Shown here in pieces: positions 11,106 to 62,901 of a DNA stretch of 64,000 nt (positions are counted from its first letter, which is position 1; each line of letters starts with the position of its first letter). The notes beneath the pieces are model-generated. The model saw only the letters and a list, made by a program, of their open reading frames with translations. It made no database searches and had not been told where the DNA came from. A program made the translations under genes and the position numbers. Source of the stretch: an uncultured Anaerolineae bacterium (GTDB taxonomy: Bacteria > Chloroflexota > Anaerolineae > Fen-1058); the NCBI GenBank assembly GCA_964398185.1, contig CAYNML010000025.1, positions 4,031 through 68,030 of the forward strand, given 5' to 3'.

Positions 11106-12032
11106 ATGAACGACACACCGGCCAACGTGGGATTGCCAAAGATGCGCGTGGGCTTTATCGGCCTGGGGCTGATGGGCAAGCCGATGGCCGGCCACCTCGT
11201 CAGGGCCGGCTATCCGCTGACGGTGCACAATCGCAGCCGCGCCGCCGTCGATGAGTTGGTAGCCCAGGGAGCACAGGCCGCCACGTCGCCGCGCGAGGTG
11301 GCGGCCAACAGCGATGTGGTGATCACCATGCTGCCCGATTCGCCCGACGTCGAATCGGTGCTTGACGGGCCAGACGGTCTGCTGGCGGGCGCGCGCCCCG
11401 GCCTGATCCACATCGACATGAGCACCATCTCGGCCACGGCCACGCGCCGCATCGCCGCGCTGGAAGCCGAGCACGGTGTGGTGCACATCGACGCGCCGGT
11501 CAGCGGCGGCGACATCGGCGCAAAAAACGCGACGTTAACCATCATGGCCGGGGGCGATGAGTACGCCGCGCTGGCCGTGGAACCAATTTTCAAGGTGCTG
11601 GGCAAACGCATCACACACATCGGGCCGATCGGGTGCGGGCAGGTCGCCAAGGCCTGCAATCAGATCATGGTCGCCGCACAGATGGTGGCCATGGGCGAAC
11701 TGCTGATCATGGCTCAGAAGGCCGGGGCCGATCCCGAGAAAGTCGTGGAAGCCATCAAGAGTGGCGCCGCGCAGTGCTGGACACTGGACAACAAACCACA
11801 GCGTCTGTTTGCGGGAAATCGCGCACCGGGCTTCAAGGCGTCGATGCAGTACAAGGATCTCAACATCGTCATGGAGATGGCGCGCACTTACGGCGTCCCC
11901 CTGCCCGGCACGGCGGCGAACACGCAAGTGTTTAATGCCATGATCGCCAACGGGCTGGGCGATCAAGACAACTCAGCCGTAATTGGCGTCATTGAGCAGC
12001 TGGCCCACACGCTGTTGCAGACGCACGAATAA
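11106..12032 (+). CDS. NAD(P)-binding 3-hydroxyisobutyrate/tartronate-semialdehyde reductase family dehydrogenase
   Basis: N-terminal Rossmann motif GFIGLGLMGKPMAGHL, the HIBADH-family stretch DAPVSGG and a 6PGDH-like C-terminal helical domain. Confidence 0.75.
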   Translation: MNDTPANVGLPKMRVGFIGLGLMGKPMAGHLVRAGYPLTVHNRSRAAVDELVAQGAQAATSPREVAANSDVVITMLPDSPDVESVLDGPDGLLAGARPGLIHIDMSTISATATRRIAALEAEHGVVHIDAPVSGGDIGAKNATLTIMAGGDEYAALAVEPIFKVLGKRITHIGPIGCGQVAKACNQIMVAAQMVAMGELLIMAQKAGADPEKVVEAIKSGAAQCWTLDNKPQRLFAGNRAPGFKASMQYKDLNIVMEMARTYGVPLPGTAANTQVFNAMIANGLGDQDNSAVIGVIEQLAHTLLQTHE

Positions 12033-34552: not shown

Positions 34553-34566
34553 CTTAACAATGAACA

Positions 34567-34613
34567 ATGCTCAATGACCAATGAACAACTCGGTCGTTGA
34601 GCATTTTCGTTTA
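34567..34613 (+). terminator. Rho-independent terminator after tRNA-His
   Basis: 12-bp stem ATGCTCAATGAC ... GTCGTTGAGCAT followed by TTTTCGTTT. Its 5' arm and loop are built from 7-bp NNCAATG repeats (34556-34590). Confidence 0.6.
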
Positions 34614-34679: not shown

Positions 34680-35150
34680 ATGACTGAACCCAAATTGAAA
34701 CTTGGCGATCCTGCGCCCGATTTCACTCTGGCCGACGATCAGGGCAAAACTGTGAAGCTGTCCGATTATCGCGGCCAGCGCGTCGTGGTGTATTTCTACC
34801 CCAAGGATGACACGCCCGGCTGCACCACGCAATCGTGCGGCTTCCGCGACAATTATCCGGCCATTCAAGAGAAGAACGCGGTGGTGCTGGGCATCAGCCC
34901 CGACGATCAGAAATCGCACGTGAAATTCAAGAGCAAGTTCAACCTGCCCTTCACGCTGCTGTGCGATGTCGATCACACCGTGGCTGAGACTTACGGCGTG
35001 TGGGGCGAGAAGTCGCTGATGGGCAAGACGTACATGGGCATCATCCGCAGCCACTTCGTTGTTGATGAAAACGGCCAGTTGATCGACGTGCAATACAACA
35101 TCAAGCCGGAAGCGAGTGTGGCGGGGGCGCTGGAAGTCATTCGTCGTTAG
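34680..35150 (+). CDS. bcp: Peroxiredoxin Bcp (thiol peroxidase, AhpC/TSA family)
   Basis: [13 protein letters not shown]... is the Bcp signature with the peroxidatic Cys. 156 aa. Confidence 0.85.
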
Positions 35151-35178
35151 TCGTTGGTTGTTGGTTGTTGGTTGTTAG
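35151..35178. repeat. Heptamer tandem repeat (TNGTTGG)x3 + TTGTTAG
   Basis: tcgttgg ttgttgg ttgttgg ttgttag directly after the bcp stop codon. Confidence 0.6.
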
Positions 35179-36676: not shown

Positions 36677-36718
36677 GAGCACGCATTACGCATCACGTTT
36701 TACGCATCACGCATCACG
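36677..36718. repeat. Heptamer tandem repeat (NNNNACG)x6: GAGCACG CATTACG CATCACG TTTTACG CATCACG CATCACG
   Basis: 7-bp periodic array in the convergent 3' intergenic region between the SCP2 gene and ftsK. Confidence 0.6.
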
Positions 36719-36720
36719 TT

Positions 36721-39021
36721 CTACAGCCACCCATCGACCTCATCATTCGGCCCGATGAGCACATCGCGCGCGCGGCCTGCTTCCTGCACCGGCCCCACGA
36801 TGCCCATCTGCTCCATGCGATCGATCAAGTACGCGGCCTTGGGATAGCCCAGGCGCATCTTGCGCTGCAACCACGAGGCGCTGGCCTGGCGATGCTTCTT
36901 CACCAACTCGATTGCTTTGGCCAGCAGCACTTCATCGTCGTCTTCCAACGCGGCCGTCGCTGCGCCCGCCTGTGCAATCTCTTCAAGCTGCTGCACCCTG
37001 GTGGTTTCCCACGGCGCGGGCACCCGCTCTTCGTCGGCGTATTGCTTGCGCCAGAAATCGGCCACCCGATCGATCTCGCGCTCGCCCACGTAACAGCCCT
37101 GCACACGCTGCGGGCCGTTAGCTGTCGGTGACAGGAACAGCATGTCGCCCTTGCCCAATAAAGTTTCCGCGCCTACCCCGTCGAGAATGACGCGGCTGTC
37201 CACGCCCGAGGCCACCGCGAACGCAATGCGCGCCGGGAAGTTCGCCTTGATCAAACCGGTCACCACGTCAGTCGAGGGACGCTGCGTGGCGATGACCAGA
37301 TGGATGCCCGTGGCGCGCGCCATCTGCGCGATGCGGCAGATAGTCTTCTCCACCTCCACCGGCGCGCTCATCATCAAGTCCGAGAGTTCGTCGATGAACA
37401 CCGCCATGAAGGGCAGCTTGTCCTGCCCCTGCTCCGCCATCTGCGCGTTGTATTCGTTGACGTGGCGCACGCCCAGGTCCGAGAACTTCTTGTAGCGGCT
37501 GTCCATTTCGCGCGTGACCCAGCGCAGCACGCCCACAATGCGCTCGACCTCGGTTTCCACTTTGCCGTACAGATGCGGCAAGCCGTTGTAGCGGATCAGT
37601 TCCACCATCTTGGGATCGATCATCACGAGGCGCAGATCGTCGGGCGTATTGTCCATGATCAGCGACATGATGACGGCGTTGATGCACACGCTTTTGCCGG
37701 AACCCGTCGTCCCCGCGATCAAGATGTGCGGCATCGAAGCCAGATCGGCGGCGATGGGCATCCCGCTGACATCGCGCCCCAGCGCAAAAGCCAGCGGCGC
37801 TTTGGCCTTCAGCTTGCCGAAAGATTCGCTCTCCAGCACGCCGCGCAGACCCACCATTTCGATCGACTCGTTGGGGACTTCGATGCCGACGAACGATTGA
37901 CCGGGCACCGGCGCTTCAATGCGCAGCGACGGCGCGGCCAGCGCCAGCGCCAGATCGTTTTGCAGCGAGCTGATCTGCGCCACGCGCACTTTCTGGCGGC
38001 GCACCTCGCCTTCGGGGCCGGGCCGTTCGAGGTAACCCGGCTCAACGCCGTACTGTGTCACCGCCGGGCCTTGCGACACGCGCACGACTTTCGCCTCCAG
38101 ACCAAACTGCCGCAGCGTGCTTTCGATCACATCTTTCTTGTGCGCGATTTCCTCCTGCGCGATCGACTCGCTGGTATGGCCTTCCAGCAGATCGAGCGTG
38201 GGCAGCGCGCGCACTTTCTTGATCTTCGGCAGGGGAACCTCTTCGGTTTTGACGATCTTCAACGGCAGTTGGGTGGCTTGCACCGGCTGCTGATCGAGCG
38301 ACTTGGCCTTGATGACCACTTGCTGCGGCGGCACAATCTCTTCCTCGATCGGTGGGGCGGCGGCCGACGGCCCCGCCTCGCTGATCGTGGGGACTGCCAC
38401 CGTTTCGATCGGGCGGCGGCGCACCCGCCAGATCTTCAGGCGCGCGTACCACGTCAGCCACGGCAGACGCAGGCCGATCGTCAACGCGACGATCGTGACG
38501 ATCAAGTACAACACCCCGGCCACATACCGTGGGAAGATTGGCGTGACGATCATGAGCAAGCCCCAGCCCACCACGCCGCCGCCATTTCCGGCGGTGATCC
38601 TGCTCCACATATCCTGATCAGAATAAGCGCCGAAGGCCGTCAGGACAGGCAGAAACGCGAAGAACGCCACCTCAACCGCGATGACGGATTTCCACGGCGT
38701 GACCAGCACGATGTTCTGTGTGCGCGCAATGATCAACACACCAATCGCGCCGAGTATGAAGGCGAAGAGAAATGCCCCCCAGCCGAAGAGCCAATAGAGG
38801 CCGTTGCTCCACCACTCGCTGAGGCTGCCCGGGGTATCGAAGCGCGACAGCGCGACGAGCGACCACACGGCCAGCGCCATGAGCAGCACGCCCAGGATCT
38901 CGCGGCTGCGCACGCCCACGCGGTAGCGCAGTTGGCGGCGGCGCAGCGGCGGTGCTTTCTCGGTTTTTGCTTTGGCTTTCGCGTCCGCTGTGGCGCGGCT
39001 CGCATTCGCGGATTTGGTCAT
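36721..39021 (-). CDS. ftsK: DNA translocase FtsK/SpoIIIE
   Basis: N-terminal multi-TM region, motor domain with Walker A GTTGSGKS, and a C-terminal gamma winged-helix domain. Confidence 0.9.
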   Translation of the reverse strand: MTKSANASRATADAKAKAKTEKAPPLRRRQLRYRVGVRSREILGVLLMALAVWSLVALSRFDTPGSLSEWWSNGLYWLFGWGAFLFAFILGAIGVLIIARTQNIVLVTPWKSVIAVEVAFFAFLPVLTAFGAYSDQDMWSRITAGNGGGVVGWGLLMIVTPIFPRYVAGVLYLIVTIVALTIGLRLPWLTWYARLKIWRVRRRPIETVAVPTISEAGPSAAAPPIEEEIVPPQQVVIKAKSLDQQPVQATQLPLKIVKTEEVPLPKIKKVRALPTLDLLEGHTSESIAQEEIAHKKDVIESTLRQFGLEAKVVRVSQGPAVTQYGVEPGYLERPGPEGEVRRQKVRVAQISSLQNDLALALAAPSLRIEAPVPGQSFVGIEVPNESIEMVGLRGVLESESFGKLKAKAPLAFALGRDVSGMPIAADLASMPHILIAGTTGSGKSVCINAVIMSLIMDNTPDDLRLVMIDPKMVELIRYNGLPHLYGKVETEVERIVGVLRWVTREMDSRYKKFSDLGVRHVNEYNAQMAEQGQDKLPFMAVFIDELSDLMMSAPVEVEKTICRIAQMARATGIHLVIATQRPSTDVVTGLIKANFPARIAFAVASGVDSRVILDGVGAETLLGKGDMLFLSPTANGPQRVQGCYVGEREIDRVADFWRKQYADEERVPAPWETTRVQQLEEIAQAGAATAALEDDDEVLLAKAIELVKKHRQASASWLQRKMRLGYPKAAYLIDRMEQMGIVGPVQEAGRARDVLIGPNDEVDGWL

Positions 39022-45095: not shown

Positions 45096-46031
45096 TTAGA
45101 CTTCAGGCTCGGGCAGCACCGGCGGCGGCTGCACGTAGATTTGCGTGGTGGAGATATTGGCGTGGCCCAGGTAGCGCTGCACTTCTGACAACGTGGCTTT
45201 GTTGTTTTGCAGCATGTGCGCGGCAAAGGAGTGGCGCAGCATGTGCGGCGTCACCTCGTAGTCGAGGCCGGCCCGCGCAGCATATTCTTTGATGATCAAC
45301 CACATGCCCTGCCGCGTCAACTGCTGGCCGCGCTGGTTCAGGAACAGCGCCGCCTGGTTGCCGGAACTCTTCACAAAATGCGGCCGCCCGCGTTCGAGGT
45401 AGATCTGCAGCGCTTCGGCGGCCTTATCACTCAGCGGCACCGTGCGTTCGCGCCCGCCGTCTTCGCTAGTGACGCGCATCGCCTTCTCGGCCAGATTCAC
45501 ATCGTCCGTGCGGAACGAGACCAATTCGGAAACGCGCACGCCCGTGGCATAGAGCAGCTCCAGCAGCGCGCGGTCGCGCAGGGTCTTGGGTGAGTTGCCG
45601 GTTCCCGGCGCGGCCAACAAACGCTCAACCTCTTCGTTCGTCATGGTCTTGGGCGTACGCTTGGCCACGCGCGGCGCTTCCAGCCCGCCGGACGGATCGC
45701 GCGGGATGATGCGCTTGACCGTAAGATAATTGAAAAATGATTTTAGCGCGGCCACCTTGCGGGCGATCGTCGACGGCGCCACAGGTTTTTCATCGCCGCT
45801 GCGCTTGGTAATTTTCAGCGAGCGCAGCGCGTCGACAAAGGCTGCCAGATCAGTCGAGGTGACATCGGCCCAGCTGGTCACCGGCGACTCGCGATGTCCC
45901 AGATAATCAATCAGTTGGCTCAGATCGTTGCGATAGGCCGCCACAGTATTGCGCGCGTAACCATCTTCGTGCGCCAGCGACGTGAGGAATTGTTCGAGAT
46001 AGGGTTGCAGAGCGAGTTGAGTTTCGTTCAT
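45096..46031 (-). CDS. xerD: Tyrosine recombinase XerC/XerD
   Basis: Catalytic-residue pattern ...R...HMLRHSFA...LGHANISTTQIYV (Tyr) and an N-terminal SAM-like domain. Confidence 0.85.
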   Translation of the reverse strand: MNETQLALQPYLEQFLTSLAHEDGYARNTVAAYRNDLSQLIDYLGHRESPVTSWADVTSTDLAAFVDALRSLKITKRSGDEKPVAPSTIARKVAALKSFFNYLTVKRIIPRDPSGGLEAPRVAKRTPKTMTNEEVERLLAAPGTGNSPKTLRDRALLELLYATGVRVSELVSFRTDDVNLAEKAMRVTSEDGGRERTVPLSDKAAEALQIYLERGRPHFVKSSGNQAALFLNQRGQQLTRQGMWLIIKEYAARAGLDYEVTPHMLRHSFAAHMLQNNKATLSEVQRYLGHANISTTQIYVQPPPVLPEPEV

Positions 46032-49392: not shown

Positions 49393-50925
49393 ATGCCTAA
49401 GCTCGCACTTCACGAAATCTATCTGGCGCAGCAGCGCATCGCGCCGTACCTCGATCGGACGCCACTGGTCCGATCGGGTCTGCTGAGCGCGCAGGCGGGA
49501 TGCGACGTCTGGCTGAAGCTCGAGAATCGCCAGCGCACGGGATCGTTCAAGCCGCGCGGCGCGTTGAATAAGATTCTGTCGTTGAGTGAGGAAGAACGCG
49601 CGCGCGGCATCGTGGCGGCTTCGGCGGGCAATCACGCGCTGGGCGTGGCGCACGCGGCGCAATATCTAGGCGTGAGCAATGCCGATCTGTTCGTGCAGGC
49701 CAATGCGGCCCCGGCGAAGATCGCGAAGGTCCGGCAGTACAACGTGAAGCTGCACCTCGTCGGTCAACGCTTCGATGAAGCACAGGCGGCGGCCCTGGAG
49801 TTCGCCGCGAAGAACAGCGCGACGTTTGTGTCGGCGTATGATGATCTCGCTGTGATCGCCGGACAGGGCACGGTGGGGCTGGAGATTATGCAGGATGCGC
49901 CCGACGTCGATACGATCGTCGTGCCGGTGGGCGGCGGCGGTTTGATCGCGGGGCTGGCGACGGTGGCGAAGTCGCTGAATCCCACGATTCGTGTTATCGG
50001 CGTGAATCCGGCGGCGTCACCCTCGGCGTACCTCTCCAAACGCGATGGGTATCCCTACGAAACGTACGAGAACGAGCCGACGCTGGCGCACGGCCTGGCA
50101 GGCGGCTTCGGACGCGTGCCGTTCATGGTCGGTATGATGCTGATTGATGAGATCGTGCTGGTCAGTGAAGACGAGATGAAGCGCGGCATCGCCGCGTTGA
50201 TCGATTCGGATCAGGTGCTGGCCGAGGCGTCGGGCATCGCTGGTCTAGCGGCGGTGTTAGCAGGCAAAGTCGCCGATGCGCAGAAATGCGTGTGCGTGCT
50301 GACGGGCGGGAATATCGACAGCGAGACGCTGCGGGGTGTGCTCGGTGTCAGCGGATATGCAGCGGATCAGCGGATGAAGAATGTCAACGGATTGGCAGCG
50401 GATCAGCAGATGAAGGGTGTCAACGGATTGGCAGCGGATCAGCAGATGACACCCGCCGCTGCACAACAAGCATCAAGCCATAAAAAGAAAGACGCCCCCG
50501 GATTCATCCGAACGACCTATGACGAGATCACCTATCGCTTGATTGGGCTGGCAATGGAAGTGCATAATGAGCTAGGCCCTGGACATCGTGAAGCCGCGTA
50601 TCATAATGCGCTTGTTGCCAAGCTCAAGGAAACCGACCTCGCCTTTCTGGACGAGCCTGAGATGTGGGTCGAACTGGAAGATGGCAGGGAGATTCAGAAA
50701 TATGTACCCGACCTGATTGTTGAGGGAAAAGTTCTGGTTGAATTGAAAGCACAGTCGTGGCCCATGACCCGTGACGATATGGCGCAAGTTTTCGACTATT
50801 TTGCGGGGACGGAATGTGAGGTCGCGTTATTCTTGAATTTTGGACGTCCGCGCCTCGAATACCGCCGCCTATTGCCACCGCAGATCATCACCTATAGCCG
50901 CTTGCGAAAATCACGCCGGACATAG
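49393..50925 (+). CDS. Threonine/serine dehydratase (PLP fold-type II) fused in frame to a C-terminal GxxExxY PD-(D/E)xK nuclease-superfamily domain
   Basis: Residues 1-~320 carry SFKPRGA and GNHA PLP-enzyme motifs. Then comes a tandem 12-aa repeat linker (GLAADQQMKGVN x2.5), then a ~130-aa domain with LGPGHREAAYHNAL (GxxExxY) matching the PF13366/TIGR04256 pattern. Confidence 0.7.
   Translation: MPKLALHEIYLAQQRIAPYLDRTPLVRSGLLSAQAGCDVWLKLENRQRTGSFKPRGALNKILSLSEEERARGIVAASAGNHALGVAHAAQYLGVSNADLFVQANAAPAKIAKVRQYNVKLHLVGQRFDEAQAAALEFAAKNSATFVSAYDDLAVIAGQGTVGLEIMQDAPDVDTIVVPVGGGGLIAGLATVAKSLNPTIRVIGVNPAASPSAYLSKRDGYPYETYENEPTLAHGLAGGFGRVPFMVGMMLIDEIVLVSEDEMKRGIAALIDSDQVLAEASGIAGLAAVLAGKVADAQKCVCVLTGGNIDSETLRGVLGVSGYAADQRMKNVNGLAADQQMKGVNGLAADQQMTPAAAQQASSHKKKDAPGFIRTTYDEITYRLIGLAMEVHNELGPGHREAAYHNALVAKLKETDLAFLDEPEMWVELEDGREIQKYVPDLIVEGKVLVELKAQSWPMTRDDMAQVFDYFAGTECEVALFLNFGRPRLEYRRLLPPQIITYSRLRKSRRT
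50359..50450 (+). repeat. 36-bp tandem repeat x2.5 (GCAGCGGATCAGCRGATGAAGRRTGTCAACGGATTG), in-frame coding
   Basis: Units at 50359-94, 50395-430 and 50431-50, inside the dehydratase-GxxExxY ORF. Confidence 0.8.
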
Positions 50926-50935
50926 GCACGGGGCT

Positions 50936-51017
50936 ATCCGCTGATTCGCTGGCAATCCGTTGACCCGGTATCCGCTGCTAAGACATCCGCTGATTCGCTG
51001 CTTATCCGATGACACCC
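50936..51017 (+). repeat. Inverted copies of the 50359-50450 repeat units (ATCCGCTGATTCGCTG x2, CAATCCGTTGAC, ATCCGATGACACCC)
   Basis: The reverse complement matches the upstream units (e.g. CAATCCGTTGAC 12/12; CAGCGAATCAGCGGAT 15/16). Begins 11 nt after the stop codon and overlaps the GT4 start codon. Confidence 0.75.
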
Positions 51018-52064
51018 TTTCTATTCGTATTCCTCATTTCGTGCAGCGCATCTCTGCTGCTTACGCCGCTGGCAGCCAAACTCGGGCTACGCCTCAACCT
51101 GGCCGACGAACCCGGCGGGCGGCGCAAACACGCGGGCCGCATCGCGCGGACGGGTGGCATTGCGATCTTCGTCAGTTTTGTCGGCGGCGTGTTGATCACC
51201 ACCCGGCTCGATCTGCCCCGATCCGACCCCAACGAATTCACGCGCATCGGCGGCTTGCTGAGCGGGCTGATCATCGTCTTTGTCTTTGGCTTGCTCGACG
51301 ATCATTTTGAATTCAGGCCGGGCCTGCAATTCGTGGCGCAGGCTGCCGCCTCGCTCGTCGCGATTGCCTCGCTGATCTTCATCGAGCGCTTCAACAATCC
51401 GTTCACGAATCAAGAAGTGAACCTTGGCGAGATCGCGCCGTGGCTGATTGTGCCGTTGGCGCTGTTCTGGCTGATGGGGATGATGAACACCGTCAACTGG
51501 CTCGACGGACTCGACGGGCTGGCCGCCGGCATCGCCGCGATTTTCAGCGCGGTGCTGTTCATCGCGATGATTCAGGACACAGCCACGCAGGATCCGCAGT
51601 TGAGCATCGCACCTTTGCCGCTGGCCTTGCTGGGCGCGACGCTGGGCTTCCTGCCCTACAACTTCTATCCCGCGCGCGTCTTCATGGGATCGAGCGGCGC
51701 GCTGACGCTGGGCTTGGCGCTGGGCTGTCTGGGCATCATTGGCGGCGCGAAGATGGCGACAGTCTTGCTGGTGCTGGCGGTGCCCATCATTGATGTGGCG
51801 TGGCTCATCGTCGCGCGCCTCCGGCACGGCAAATCGCCGTTGCAGGGCGGGCGCGATCACCTGCATTTCCGCCTGCTTGATCTGGGCCTGTCGCAGCGGC
51901 AGATTGTGGTGGGCTATTACGTGATCAGCGCGTTGTTCGGCGGGCTGGCGTTGATCATCGAAGCCCGGATCTACAAAGTTCTGGCGCTGGGCGTGCTGGG
52001 CATCGTGACACTGCTGGTGCTGGTGCTGGTGGCAAAGAAAAGCGAACAACTGGACAAACAGTAA
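51009..52064 (+). CDS. Glycosyltransferase family 4 polyprenyl-phosphate N-acetylhexosamine-1-phosphate transferase (MraY/WecA-like)
   Basis: ~10 TM helices with conserved LDDHF.. and NxxNWLDGLDGLA motifs. Confidence 0.75.
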   Translation: MTPFLFVFLISCSASLLLTPLAAKLGLRLNLADEPGGRRKHAGRIARTGGIAIFVSFVGGVLITTRLDLPRSDPNEFTRIGGLLSGLIIVFVFGLLDDHFEFRPGLQFVAQAAASLVAIASLIFIERFNNPFTNQEVNLGEIAPWLIVPLALFWLMGMMNTVNWLDGLDGLAAGIAAIFSAVLFIAMIQDTATQDPQLSIAPLPLALLGATLGFLPYNFYPARVFMGSSGALTLGLALGCLGIIGGAKMATVLLVLAVPIIDVAWLIVARLRHGKSPLQGGRDHLHFRLLDLGLSQRQIVVGYYVISALFGGLALIIEARIYKVLALGVLGIVTLLVLVLVAKKSEQLDKQ

Positions 52065-52067
52065 CGA

Positions 52068-52859
52068 TCAGCGTTTCTTTTTCCTGGAAGAGTGATCGAC
52101 CGAAGAAGTGTATTCCACCCGGCGGCCCAACGCGCGGCCGGAGGTAACCTCGATCAGAAAGATCACCAGGACGAACGGTGCATCCACGACGAGGGTAATG
52201 GTGAACGCCGCGGCCAGCCAGCGCATGATCTGATCCACGACGACCCCCGCCCCCTCGATAGCCGAACTCCACCCAAAGGCCGCCGCCAGCGACAACAATA
52301 ACAAACTGAAGAGAATCACGGGGGGCCACGTTTCTCGATCGGAGGGGCTGGGTATCATCGCATTGGCGATCGAGAACAGCAGGTACAACCACAACCACGC
52401 ATCGGGTGCGCGCAGCAAGCCGCCCAGCGAGGCCAGCAGCGCCGCCAGATCGCCGCGCTGCACAGCCTCGCCAATCGTATTCACGTCAAATGCGAAGCGG
52501 ATGATCACCAGGATCGCCACGCTGCCCGCCAACAACGGCGCAAGACCGATCAAGCTGGAGCGCACCACGTCCACGCGCTCGACCTGCACGGAACCCAGGC
52601 GCACGTGTCCGTCGGGTTGACGCTGCGGAATGATCGTCAGGTTCGCCGTCTTGACGCCGAGGACGGCCGCCATCAGCGCATGCGAGAGTTCATGCAGCGC
52701 CACGCCCGGCAGCAGCGGCAGTGAATACAGCAACAACGCCATGTCGGCGTGGCCGGTGAGCAGATAGGCGGCGCCGTGCAGATGCCGGTGCACCCAACGC
52801 TGCACCAGCACCAGCAAGAGCAAGGTGCCAAGGAACCACAAGAACGACGAGAGCAACAT
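52068..52859 (-). CDS. Membrane zinc metalloprotease, M50/site-2-protease-like
   Basis: HELSHALMA HExxH motif inside a TM helix, in a multi-TM protein. Confidence 0.5.
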   Translation of the reverse strand: MLLSSFLWFLGTLLLLVLVQRWVHRHLHGAAYLLTGHADMALLLYSLPLLPGVALHELSHALMAAVLGVKTANLTIIPQRQPDGHVRLGSVQVERVDVVRSSLIGLAPLLAGSVAILVIIRFAFDVNTIGEAVQRGDLAALLASLGGLLRAPDAWLWLYLLFSIANAMIPSPSDRETWPPVILFSLLLLSLAAAFGWSSAIEGAGVVVDQIMRWLAAAFTITLVVDAPFVLVIFLIEVTSGRALGRRVEYTSSVDHSSRKKKR

Positions 52860-62824: not shown

Positions 62825-62901
62825 GATTACGCCTTACGCCTTACGCCTTACGCCTTACGTTTTACGTTTTACGTTTTACGGTTTACGGTTTACGCTTTAC
62901 G
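62825..62901. repeat. Heptamer tandem repeat array (NNTTACG)x11: GATTACG (CCTTACG)x4 (TTTTACG)x3 (GTTTACG)x2 CTTTACG
   Basis: 77-bp perfect 7-bp periodicity, from 9 nt after the PEBP stop to ~30 nt before the aminotransferase start. Confidence 0.8.

Follow-up and report, generated by a model that had tools for sequence, protein, structure and literature searches.

The Locus and Its Reading Frames

The stretch of DNA considered here (the window, 64,000 nucleotides of contig CAYNML010000025.1 from an uncultured Anaerolineae bacterium) contains a gene for a pyridoxal phosphate (PLP) threonine/serine dehydratase that is followed by an element bounded by short inverted repeats and then by a glycosyltransferase family 4 (GT4, MraY/WecA-like) gene. 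The element carries a nuclease domain of the GxxExxY family, and the dehydratase frame continues through the repeats into this domain to give a single open reading frame (ORF). The analysis suggests an undescribed selfish element made of repeats plus a nuclease, and not a purpose-built fusion enzyme, because the same repeat recurs at many further metagenome sites in the form of gene-less hairpins.

An earlier note on this DNA had described a GxxExxY module fused in frame to a complete dehydratase, and profile searches of the 510-aa ORF bear this description out: PALP (Pfam PF00291) is matched at aa 19-305 (E 7.6e-74) and PDDEXK_3 (PF13366) at aa 378-492 (E 9.5e-26; 90.9 bits with a cut-off of 22; 115 of 117 profile positions), the NCBIfam model TIGR04256 (GxxExxY) scores 90.8 bits with a cut-off of 35, and the signature is formed by G397, E400 and Y403. 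The dehydratase module has its SFKPRG lysine motif at aa 51. Since TIGR01127 scores 301 bits, under the equivalog cut-off of 379, and is matched at model positions 1-315 of 380 with its C-terminal part left over, the module is best classed as a short-form dehydratase without an assignable exact substrate. The identical 510-aa protein occurs on four contigs, and the three places shown belong to three different Joint Genome Institute (JGI) metagenomes, which argues that the fusion ORF is neither an assembly artefact nor a chimera.

Anatomy of the Element

The repeat unit comprises 32 nt, namely a GGTGTCA terminus and three CAnCGrAT motifs that follow one another at intervals of about one helical turn. 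Comparison with related loci gives the forward unit (F) as GGTGTCA-ACGAAT-nnn-CAACGAAT-CAACGAAT, with a core that is mostly CGGAT in the window; the reverse complement of F gives the reverse unit (R), which ends in ...ATTCGATGACACC. Tandem 36-bp repeats had been noted at the junction; Tandem Repeats Finder (TRF) reports a period of 36 nt with 2.9 copies at 50346-50449 (score 166), and three forward units are recognised there. Inverted arms pair 50344-50376 with 50984-51016 (33 nt, 91%), 50413-50448 with 50984-51019 (36 nt, 86%) and 50383-50411 with 50936-50964 (29 nt, 90%), so that the proposed cassette with terminal inverted repeats is recovered and its true termini can be placed at GGTGTCA (50344) and TGACACC (51016). 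The similarity between the arms is significant, as the 29-mer with up to three mismatches is found at only three places in the 64 kb, with 0.00 expected from 100 shuffles. With a profile built from units found elsewhere, the only matches in the window were five units (E 3e-10 to 1e-6), and F1 is identical over 32 of 32 positions to one arm of a gene-less hairpin in a related locus, L111 (loci and proteins used for comparison are labelled L and P). The features are collected in the table below.

Features of the dehydratase-nuclease-GT4 region of the window
Feature	Position	Strand	Basis
Read-through ORF (dehydratase, repeat-encoded linker, GxxExxY nuclease), 510 aa	49393..50925	+	ORF listing, Pfam, NCBIfam
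PLP threonine/serine dehydratase module, aa 1-317	49393..50343	+	PALP match; orthologs of 317-326 aa stop here
Whole repeat-bounded element, 673 bp, GGTGTCA terminus to TGACACC terminus	50344..51016	.	Window compared with L004, L010, L061-L063 and L147; inverted arms
F1, GGTGTCAGCGGATATGCAGCGGATCAGCGGAT, translated GVSGYAADQR	50344..50375	+	nhmmer E 6.8e-9
F2, degenerate terminus AATGTCA	50380..50411	+	nhmmer E 8.4e-8; TRF
F3	50416..50447	+	nhmmer E 7.9e-9
CAGATGACACC, resembling a reverse-unit terminus (collapsed upstream hairpin)	50443..50453	+	Sequence; ATGACACC matches 51009-51016
GxxExxY / PDDEXK_3 nuclease domain, aa 378-493	50524..50871	+	Pfam, NCBIfam, invariant columns, AlphaFold2 (AF2), Foldseek
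R1, inverted copy of F	50936..50964	-	Repeat search; nhmmer E 1.4e-6
Partial reverse unit	50970..50981	-	Repeat search; pairs with F2 in RNA fold
R2, terminal unit, holds GT4 start codon	50985..51016	-	nhmmer E 2.9e-10; repeat search
GT4 (MraY/WecA-like) gene, start ATG-ACA-CC from element terminus	51009..52064	+	ORF listing, Pfam, comparison with relatives

On the left side, the dehydratase frame runs into F, which is read as GVSG... or GVNE..., and L062 retains a full F-R hairpin where the window has CAGATGACACC. About 70 nt of linker lie between F3/ATGACACC and the GxxExxY domain, and an in-frame ATG at 50446 (M352) is a possible independent start of the nuclease. On the right side, the nuclease stop codon (TAG, 50923-50925) is followed by the first inverted unit at 50936, and the suggestion that the downstream repeat supplies the start codon of the neighbouring gene holds, given that the GT4 ATG at 51009 lies inside R2; the window protein begins M-T-P-F, and that of empty loci M-P-F (ATG-CC). 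Two host genes, for the dehydratase and GT4, thus borrow sequence from the element.

When the region is folded as RNA, pairing of F1 with R2 and of F3 with R1 yields a long stem that surrounds the nuclease ORF and buries the GT4 start, with an energy of -279 kcal/mol versus -238 kcal/mol for shuffled sequences (z = -7.4). No promoter-like site was detected upstream of the nuclease or of GT4, all three that were found being internal to the nuclease coding sequence, and the region has no terminator-like site, so the dehydratase, nuclease and GT4 genes are probably co-transcribed.

The GxxExxY Nuclease

The residues G397-H-R-E400-A-A-Y403, P439-D440, E450-L-K452 and Q465xxxY469 all fall in invariant or nearly invariant columns of the family alignment, and every invariant residue of the GxxExxY family is kept in the window domain. 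The predicted catalytic residues are E400, D440, E450 and K452, together with Q465xxxY469, which we take to be the RecB-family motif. The AF2 model of the nuclease (pLDDT 88.6, pTM 0.82) gave top Foldseek matches in the PDB that are all PD-(D/E)XK enzymes (Cas4 SSO0001, lambda exonuclease and the nuclease domains of AdnAB/AddAB), with modest E values of ~1e-3. The C-terminal module is therefore regarded as a bona fide GxxExxY PD-(D/E)XK domain with intact catalytic residues, that is, a predicted nuclease. Between the window and L010 the domain shows a nonsynonymous divergence (dN) of 0.10 with saturated synonymous sites, and therefore appears to be under purifying selection.

The family numbers 12,911 representatives at 50% clustering, and its function is listed as unknown in a survey of the superfamily (PMC3424549). 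The window member is read through from the upstream gene, unlike the majority of members, which stand alone as proteins of 125-150 aa. Many representatives (P0241-P0389) are fusions or tandem duplications of 230-650 aa with two matched stretches, and read-through fusions such as that of the window may be common across the family. In one cassette sublineage (B; P0001-P0007, P0003, P0010), moreover, the linker translated from the repeats is separated from the nuclease domain by a conserved stretch of ~40 additional residues, RRGARLTKILTADQIEALRGGQQTWLAEKPGL.... A search of PDB sequences with the nuclease gave no meaningful match, PADLOC and PHROGs gave no match, and viral contigs scanned with the family alignment held no relative. 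In Rfam, the window region and five loci related to it matched no family at E up to 1-5, and the literature on GxxExxY, PDDEXK_3/PF13366, PDDEXK with miniature inverted-repeat transposable elements (MITEs) and the motif strings yielded nothing on repeats or function.

The Locus in Related Bacteria

The order of uracil phosphoribosyltransferase (UPRTase), dehydratase and GT4 is conserved across relatives, and the insertion site is found in every state. The fused ORF is present in the window, L004/L005, L011 and proteins P0001-P0011 (477-527 aa), and a separate GxxExxY gene follows the dehydratase stop codon in L010, L061, L062 and L063. An internally deleted pseudogene lies between F and R in L139, only F units are left in L006/L007, and L147 holds a solo consisting of the termini alone that still supplies the GT4 ATG. 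The empty site that the earlier note predicted exists in L008/L009, where a 322-aa dehydratase is followed by an unrelated 59-nt spacer and then GT4. At least 33 of the 121 dehydratase orthologs have the cassette or an F-encoded tail, a lower bound because the element of L147 lies beyond the normal stop codon; most orthologs are without the cassette, and many stop inside the first F unit (GVNE*). Repeat units were present at every filled locus with DNA examined, and the scenario of an ancient domain fusion without repeats was not seen.

Filled and empty forms are interleaved in the dehydratase tree, and many filled forms have an empty ortholog as near to them as any filled one. The dehydratase of fused P0006 is 93.4% identical to that of empty P0043, and for that of P0086 the identity is 88% with the closest empty form and only 69.5% with the closest filled form. 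Between filled and empty alleles ~78 nt are replaced, and no remnant of the empty-allele spacer inside filled alleles was found with similarity above that of shuffles.

All GxxExxY genes at the dehydratase locus form one clade, apart from 36 GxxExxY genes at other loci, which indicates that the site was colonised once and anciently. Within this clade, however, the cassette tree conflicts with both flanking genes. Relative to the window, P0001 has a dehydratase 90% identical and a GxxExxY domain 64% identical, P0011 64% and 75%, L061 69% and 76%, and L010 87% and 86%, respectively, and GT4 identity tracks that of the dehydratase. Because a non-monotonic pattern of this kind is not producible by a difference in evolutionary rate, lineages must have swapped cassettes, or had theirs replaced by those of other lineages, each time at the dehydratase site. 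L061-L063, whose dehydratases are only 64-69% identical to that of the window, have the cassette, as a separate gene, at exactly the same site, so that it is an old resident and not a recent insertion. The cassette also decays and is repeatedly lost. Thus, of the earlier view that a selfish cassette had inserted and created the fusion, the repeat-bounded cassette of selfish type stands and the recent fusion-making insertion does not, since the two genes are separate in L061-L063 and L010.

The fusion is found in at least three or four cassette sublineages whose nearest relatives are without it; in L010, the closest GxxExxY (86% identical), a stop codon divides the dehydratase and nuclease genes. 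The linkers of the fused proteins are translated repeat DNA of variable length. As the left F unit is stop-free in the dehydratase frame and the 36-nt period keeps that frame, the fusion is secondary, a recurrent accident and by-product of read-through with no designed domain architecture.

Gene-Less Copies of the Repeat

Metagenome contigs, including those of related bacteria, were scanned for the exact pattern of the window-type unit. The scan returned 113 stretches, 11 at the dehydratase locus, one beside another GxxExxY gene and 101 gene-less, the last in at least 73 unrelated contexts. Among the gene-less copies (solos), F-loop-R hairpins of 74-150 nt are frequent, and single F or R units also occur; the arms are conserved and the loops have diverged. 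Solos share a contig with a GxxExxY gene in L029, L031, L034, L037 and L051. No target-site duplication was seen in 31 of 32 elements. The 3-nt spacers and N positions of the hairpin arms are often non-complementary; the asymmetry of G:T versus A:C mismatches in the arms does not discriminate between an RNA and a DNA structure, as palindromes count on both strands and only ~11 distinct elements qualified.

In many cases a solo hairpin forms the exact midpoint of a larger inverted repeat, for example GTAAGCGTTCAGA...TCTGAACGCTTAC or TATAGAAGTTAAGAAA...TTTTGAGTC (L077 385-575, L094 8225-8410, L128, L148, L154, L081 4800-4930, L111 150-280 and L105), and the units would then be either subterminal parts of longer MITE-like elements or sequences that insert preferentially at palindrome centres. 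An 11-nt insert, GCCTTCGGCGC (GCGCCGAAGGC on the opposite strand), is often present in one arm of solos of ~85-135 nt (L077, L094, L100, L123, L128) and can fold into a GCC-GAA-GGC mini-hairpin. Mini-hairpins of this type are very stable in single-stranded DNA, and the insert hints at a single-stranded intermediate. Additionally, unrelated ORFs can have a lone F unit overlapping their 3' ends in frame, as in ...EIKIVE|GVNE (L067/L080/L100, L088, L101, L102, L076), so that the element gives GVNE-type C-terminal tails to other proteins as well.

Motif Arrays Around GxxExxY Genes

A scan with the nuclease domain, taking one genome per species, gave 51 loci from Chloroflexota, Acidobacteriota, Planctomycetota, KSB1 and others. 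Motif clusters, defined as at least three CG[AG]AT with a spacing of 6-14 nt, were found within 300 nt of the gene in 48 of these loci, with a density of 4.4 per kb near the gene compared to 0.059 per kb at more than 600 nt from it (74-fold, Poisson P ~1e-185). Typically, the gene has an F-loop-R hairpin upstream and R or a second hairpin 9-60 nt past the stop codon; the downstream unit is R in 35 loci and F in 12, and many upstream hairpins are followed by T-runs. When ORFs flanked by the repeats were searched for further passenger genes, 24 of 31 proved to be GxxExxY, and the others look antisense or due to chance.

The motif variant follows the clade of the GxxExxY protein. CCACGAAT is found in a large clade of Anaerolineales and related Chloroflexota metagenome-assembled genomes, CCACGAAT/ACACGAAT in Acidobacteriota, CGCGAAT in KSB1 and Patescibacteria, ACGCGGAT in L115 and CAACGGAT/AAGCGGAT in the L012-L020 clade; the dehydratase locus has CAACGAAT or CAGCGGAT, shifted to CA[AG]CGGAT in the window and L010. 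Only three distant matches were found in a plasmid collection, two of them with analogous repeat frames built from different motifs: in a Persicobacter plasmid (L177, 1700-2630) a distant GxxExxY gene is framed by GGATT/AATCC arrays, and in a Fusobacteria plasmid (L178, 1700-2420) a ~45-nt unit occurs twice upstream and once downstream of another, both proteins being ~31-34% identical. GxxExxY genes set in lineage-specific triple-heptamer repeats that also occur as dispersed hairpins form a pattern that was not found in the literature, RNA and protein libraries searched. The earlier note had anticipated neither the dispersed gene-less hairpins nor the motif arrays beside GxxExxY genes of several phyla.

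Further features are seen in L115 and L037. In L115 the GxxExxY gene (2546-2881) is framed by ACGCGGAT/ATCCGCG triplets and a CAACGAAT-type solo hairpin lies 9 kb off (11509-11630), so that two repeat systems apparently coexist in that genome. In L037 a pair of small ORFs (2007-2562), flanked by hairpin repeats, immediately precedes the GxxExxY gene and, judged by eye, resembles a nucleotidyltransferase/HEPN toxin-antitoxin pair.

Neighboring Genes and Unrelated Repeats

A 472-aa gene with a 5'-nucleotidase C-terminal domain lies 3' of GT4 in L004 (6676-8094), L006 and L008 (6084-7505) and is missing from the window (~52064-52070) and L001, where GT4 is directly followed by a 263-aa minus-strand gene. 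In L061 a gene with a LEM-3-like GIY-YIG nuclease domain (864-1589) lies between UPRTase and dehydratase, a second small nuclease insertion nearby. The window has an Xer-like tyrosine recombinase of 311 aa (Phage_int_SAM_1 and Phage_integrase; ~45096-46031, minus strand) 3.4 kb upstream, which is probably a housekeeping gene and no part of the element because it has the same syntenic position in the empty locus L008. The integron attC site was rejected as a candidate for the repeat: by inspection the unit end GTTGACA does not fit GTTRRRY, and this Xer-like gene is the only tyrosine recombinase nearby. Tandem heptamer arrays at 62827-62901, 36680-36724, 35135-35178 and 34556-34588 of the window (e.g., TTACGCT x10.7 and CACGCAT x5.6) have no sequence kinship to the element.

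Interpretation and Alternative Explanations

The explanation that we favor, tentatively and with slightly less than an even chance of being right, is that of a selfish cassette with repeats at its ends and a RecB/Cas4-like nuclease that recognises them, in analogy to REPIN-RAYT systems and with a mechanism that we infer. The nuclease would bind the three helically phased motifs at each element end and would nick or cut there and at solo hairpins; such cutting would maintain, mobilise or exchange the elements, functionally as a RAYT (REP-associated tyrosine transposase) does with REPINs. The in-frame dehydratase fusion would be a by-product of the stop-free F unit and the 36-nt period, and the R terminus ATGACACC would have been co-opted as the GT4 start codon. 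A wider claim, more doubtful but still conceivable, is that GxxExxY proteins (PF13366; ~12,900 clusters at 50% identity) are the dedicated nucleases of unrecognised REP/MITE-like elements in several phyla, hairpins with three helically phased heptamers in their arms, with motif variants that co-evolve in each lineage and with tails, starts and fused domains routinely donated to neighboring genes; the family would then be the PD-(D/E)XK equivalent of the RAYT-REPIN pair.

Several points weigh against this explanation. The protein and the repeat are linked only by association, and a hydrolytic PD-(D/E)XK nuclease cannot by itself join DNA strands. No solo copy lies within the 64-kb window, the solos are on metagenome contigs that are not assignable to a cassette-bearing genome, and their density is low (about one per 100 kb or more in the loci compared), unlike that of classical REPs. 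The solos compared are mutually diverged with no sign of recent bursts, and the near-complete absence of target-site duplications described above counts on the same side. The conserved strand orientation of the downstream unit also fits a role at the RNA level, and the discordant gene tree points to transfer of the gene itself from genome to genome, as expected of homing more than of a RAYT-like gene with vertical inheritance.

Homing is an unlikely alternative, in which the nuclease would cut the cassette-free allele or a gene-less F-R hairpin and recombinational repair would copy the gene in, with F/R units or the flanking genes as homology arms and the repeats as landing pads rather than substrates of transposition. 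It would account for a cassette that is always at one site and whose copies there form one clade, for its very patchy presence and absence, for the disagreement of its tree with both flanking genes, and for the ~78 nt replaced between alleles with no detectable remnant of the empty spacer; moreover, a PD-(D/E)XK homing endonuclease, I-Ssp6803I, is known. It does not explain why there has been no spread into the 101 solos with the same unit, the dehydratase locus alone holding the gene among the 113 matches, nor why the usual layout is F-R-gene-R (a hairpin, the gene and a half-hairpin) with the gene outside the hairpin loop, and flanks of 64% identity are too diverged for ordinary homologous recombination. 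That the repeats are structural or regulatory elements (terminators, mRNA stabilisers, or RNase III stems as around 23S rRNA intervening sequences) is likewise improbable; GxxExxY would then be a passenger with an unrelated role in repair or defence, tied to the repeats by insertion preference or shared descent. The strand-specific orientation relative to the gene, the T-runs after many upstream hairpins, the predicted stem around the ORF, in which the GT4 start is buried (z = -7.4), and the probable co-transcription of the three genes are all consistent with such a role. On the other hand, what is conserved across phyla is the short motif itself (CGAAT or CGGAT, three times) more than pairing, which the spacers and N positions often break; the motif variant tracks the protein clade, Rfam has no matching family, and the repeats keep very closely to one protein family, to which 24 of the 31 ORFs flanked by them belong.

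Selection for a bifunctional dehydratase-nuclease is very improbable: fused orthologs number twelve (477-527 aa) and come from no fewer than three or four sublineages of the cassette, which would be in keeping with it, but the genes are separate in the closest relative L010 and in the deep lineages L061-L063, many orthologs stop in the first F unit, the linkers are merely translated repeat DNA of variable length, and the cassette is missing from most orthologs. The least probable reading is that of a module resembling a type III toxin-antitoxin system, with the tandem 36-nt repeats as an RNA antitoxin as in ToxIN; the array of 2.9 copies does lie directly upstream of the nuclease gene, but relatives have one unit or a hairpin and no array, an anatomy that effectively refutes it. 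The same unit is also inverted downstream and recurs as gene-less hairpins elsewhere, no terminator lies between repeats and gene, PADLOC gave no match, and the protein is no ToxN/AbiE-type RNase.

Implications

An orphan family, GxxExxY, which is large and widespread, gains a testable hypothesis and a predicted DNA ligand from the findings that its genes lie inside arrays of phased heptamers, that the motif shifts with the protein clade and that the units also occur as gene-less hairpins. If the nuclease acts on the repeats, a second partnership of repeat and nuclease would stand beside REPIN-RAYT, with a different mechanism. The locus also illustrates how small elements remodel host genes, here by a 190-aa C-terminal extension of a dehydratase and the start codon of a glycosyltransferase, and multidomain "fusions" with GxxExxY should not be read in annotation as functional couplings.

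Comparison With Known Systems

ORF-containing intervening sequences of 23S rRNA are sporadic and hold a small ORF within long inverted repeats. The element studied here is similar in its sporadic occurrence and in having a small ORF inside inverted repeats able to form a stem in the transcript, and differs in its mRNA/intergenic setting and its protein family. Free-standing homing endonuclease genes, including that of I-Ssp6803I, share with it a single site, a patchy distribution, a phylogeny discordant with that of the host, decayed copies and a small nuclease; unlike them, the cassette lies outside any intron or intein, and its terminal inverted repeat arrays also exist without the gene. MITEs and the ends of Tn7- or Mu-type transposons, which have several phased subterminal binding sites, resemble it in their terminal inverted repeats of helically phased short motifs (here GGTGTCA...TGACACC with arms of 29-36 nt), in the PD-(D/E)XK fold of TnsA and in gene-less derivatives, one of which (L139) arose by internal deletion. 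In contrast to MITEs and insertion sequence (IS) transposons, there is no DDE, HUH, serine or tyrosine transposase, the sole ORF of the element encoding a PD-(D/E)XK nuclease, 31 of 32 elements are without target-site duplications, and the gene-bearing copy is confined to one locus.

REPIN-RAYT systems consist of REP-associated tyrosine transposases and repetitive extragenic palindromes (REPs). As in these systems, a small nuclease-type gene lies between inverted copies of a short repeat, each repeat family has one locus-bound gene copy, and the repeat variants are specific to the lineage of the enzyme. The repeat is also scattered as gene-less hairpins over metagenome contigs, and the resemblance would extend to this dispersal if such copies belong to the genome of the window, whose 64 kb hold none. 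The window-type unit, however, consists of a terminus and three phased heptamers whereas a REP is a single palindrome, its copy number is apparently low, and its gene tree is discordant with the flanks. Since the window enzyme is of PD-(D/E)XK type (RecB/Cas4-like) and RAYTs are of HUH/Y1 type, the relationship would be one of functional analogy only and not of membership.

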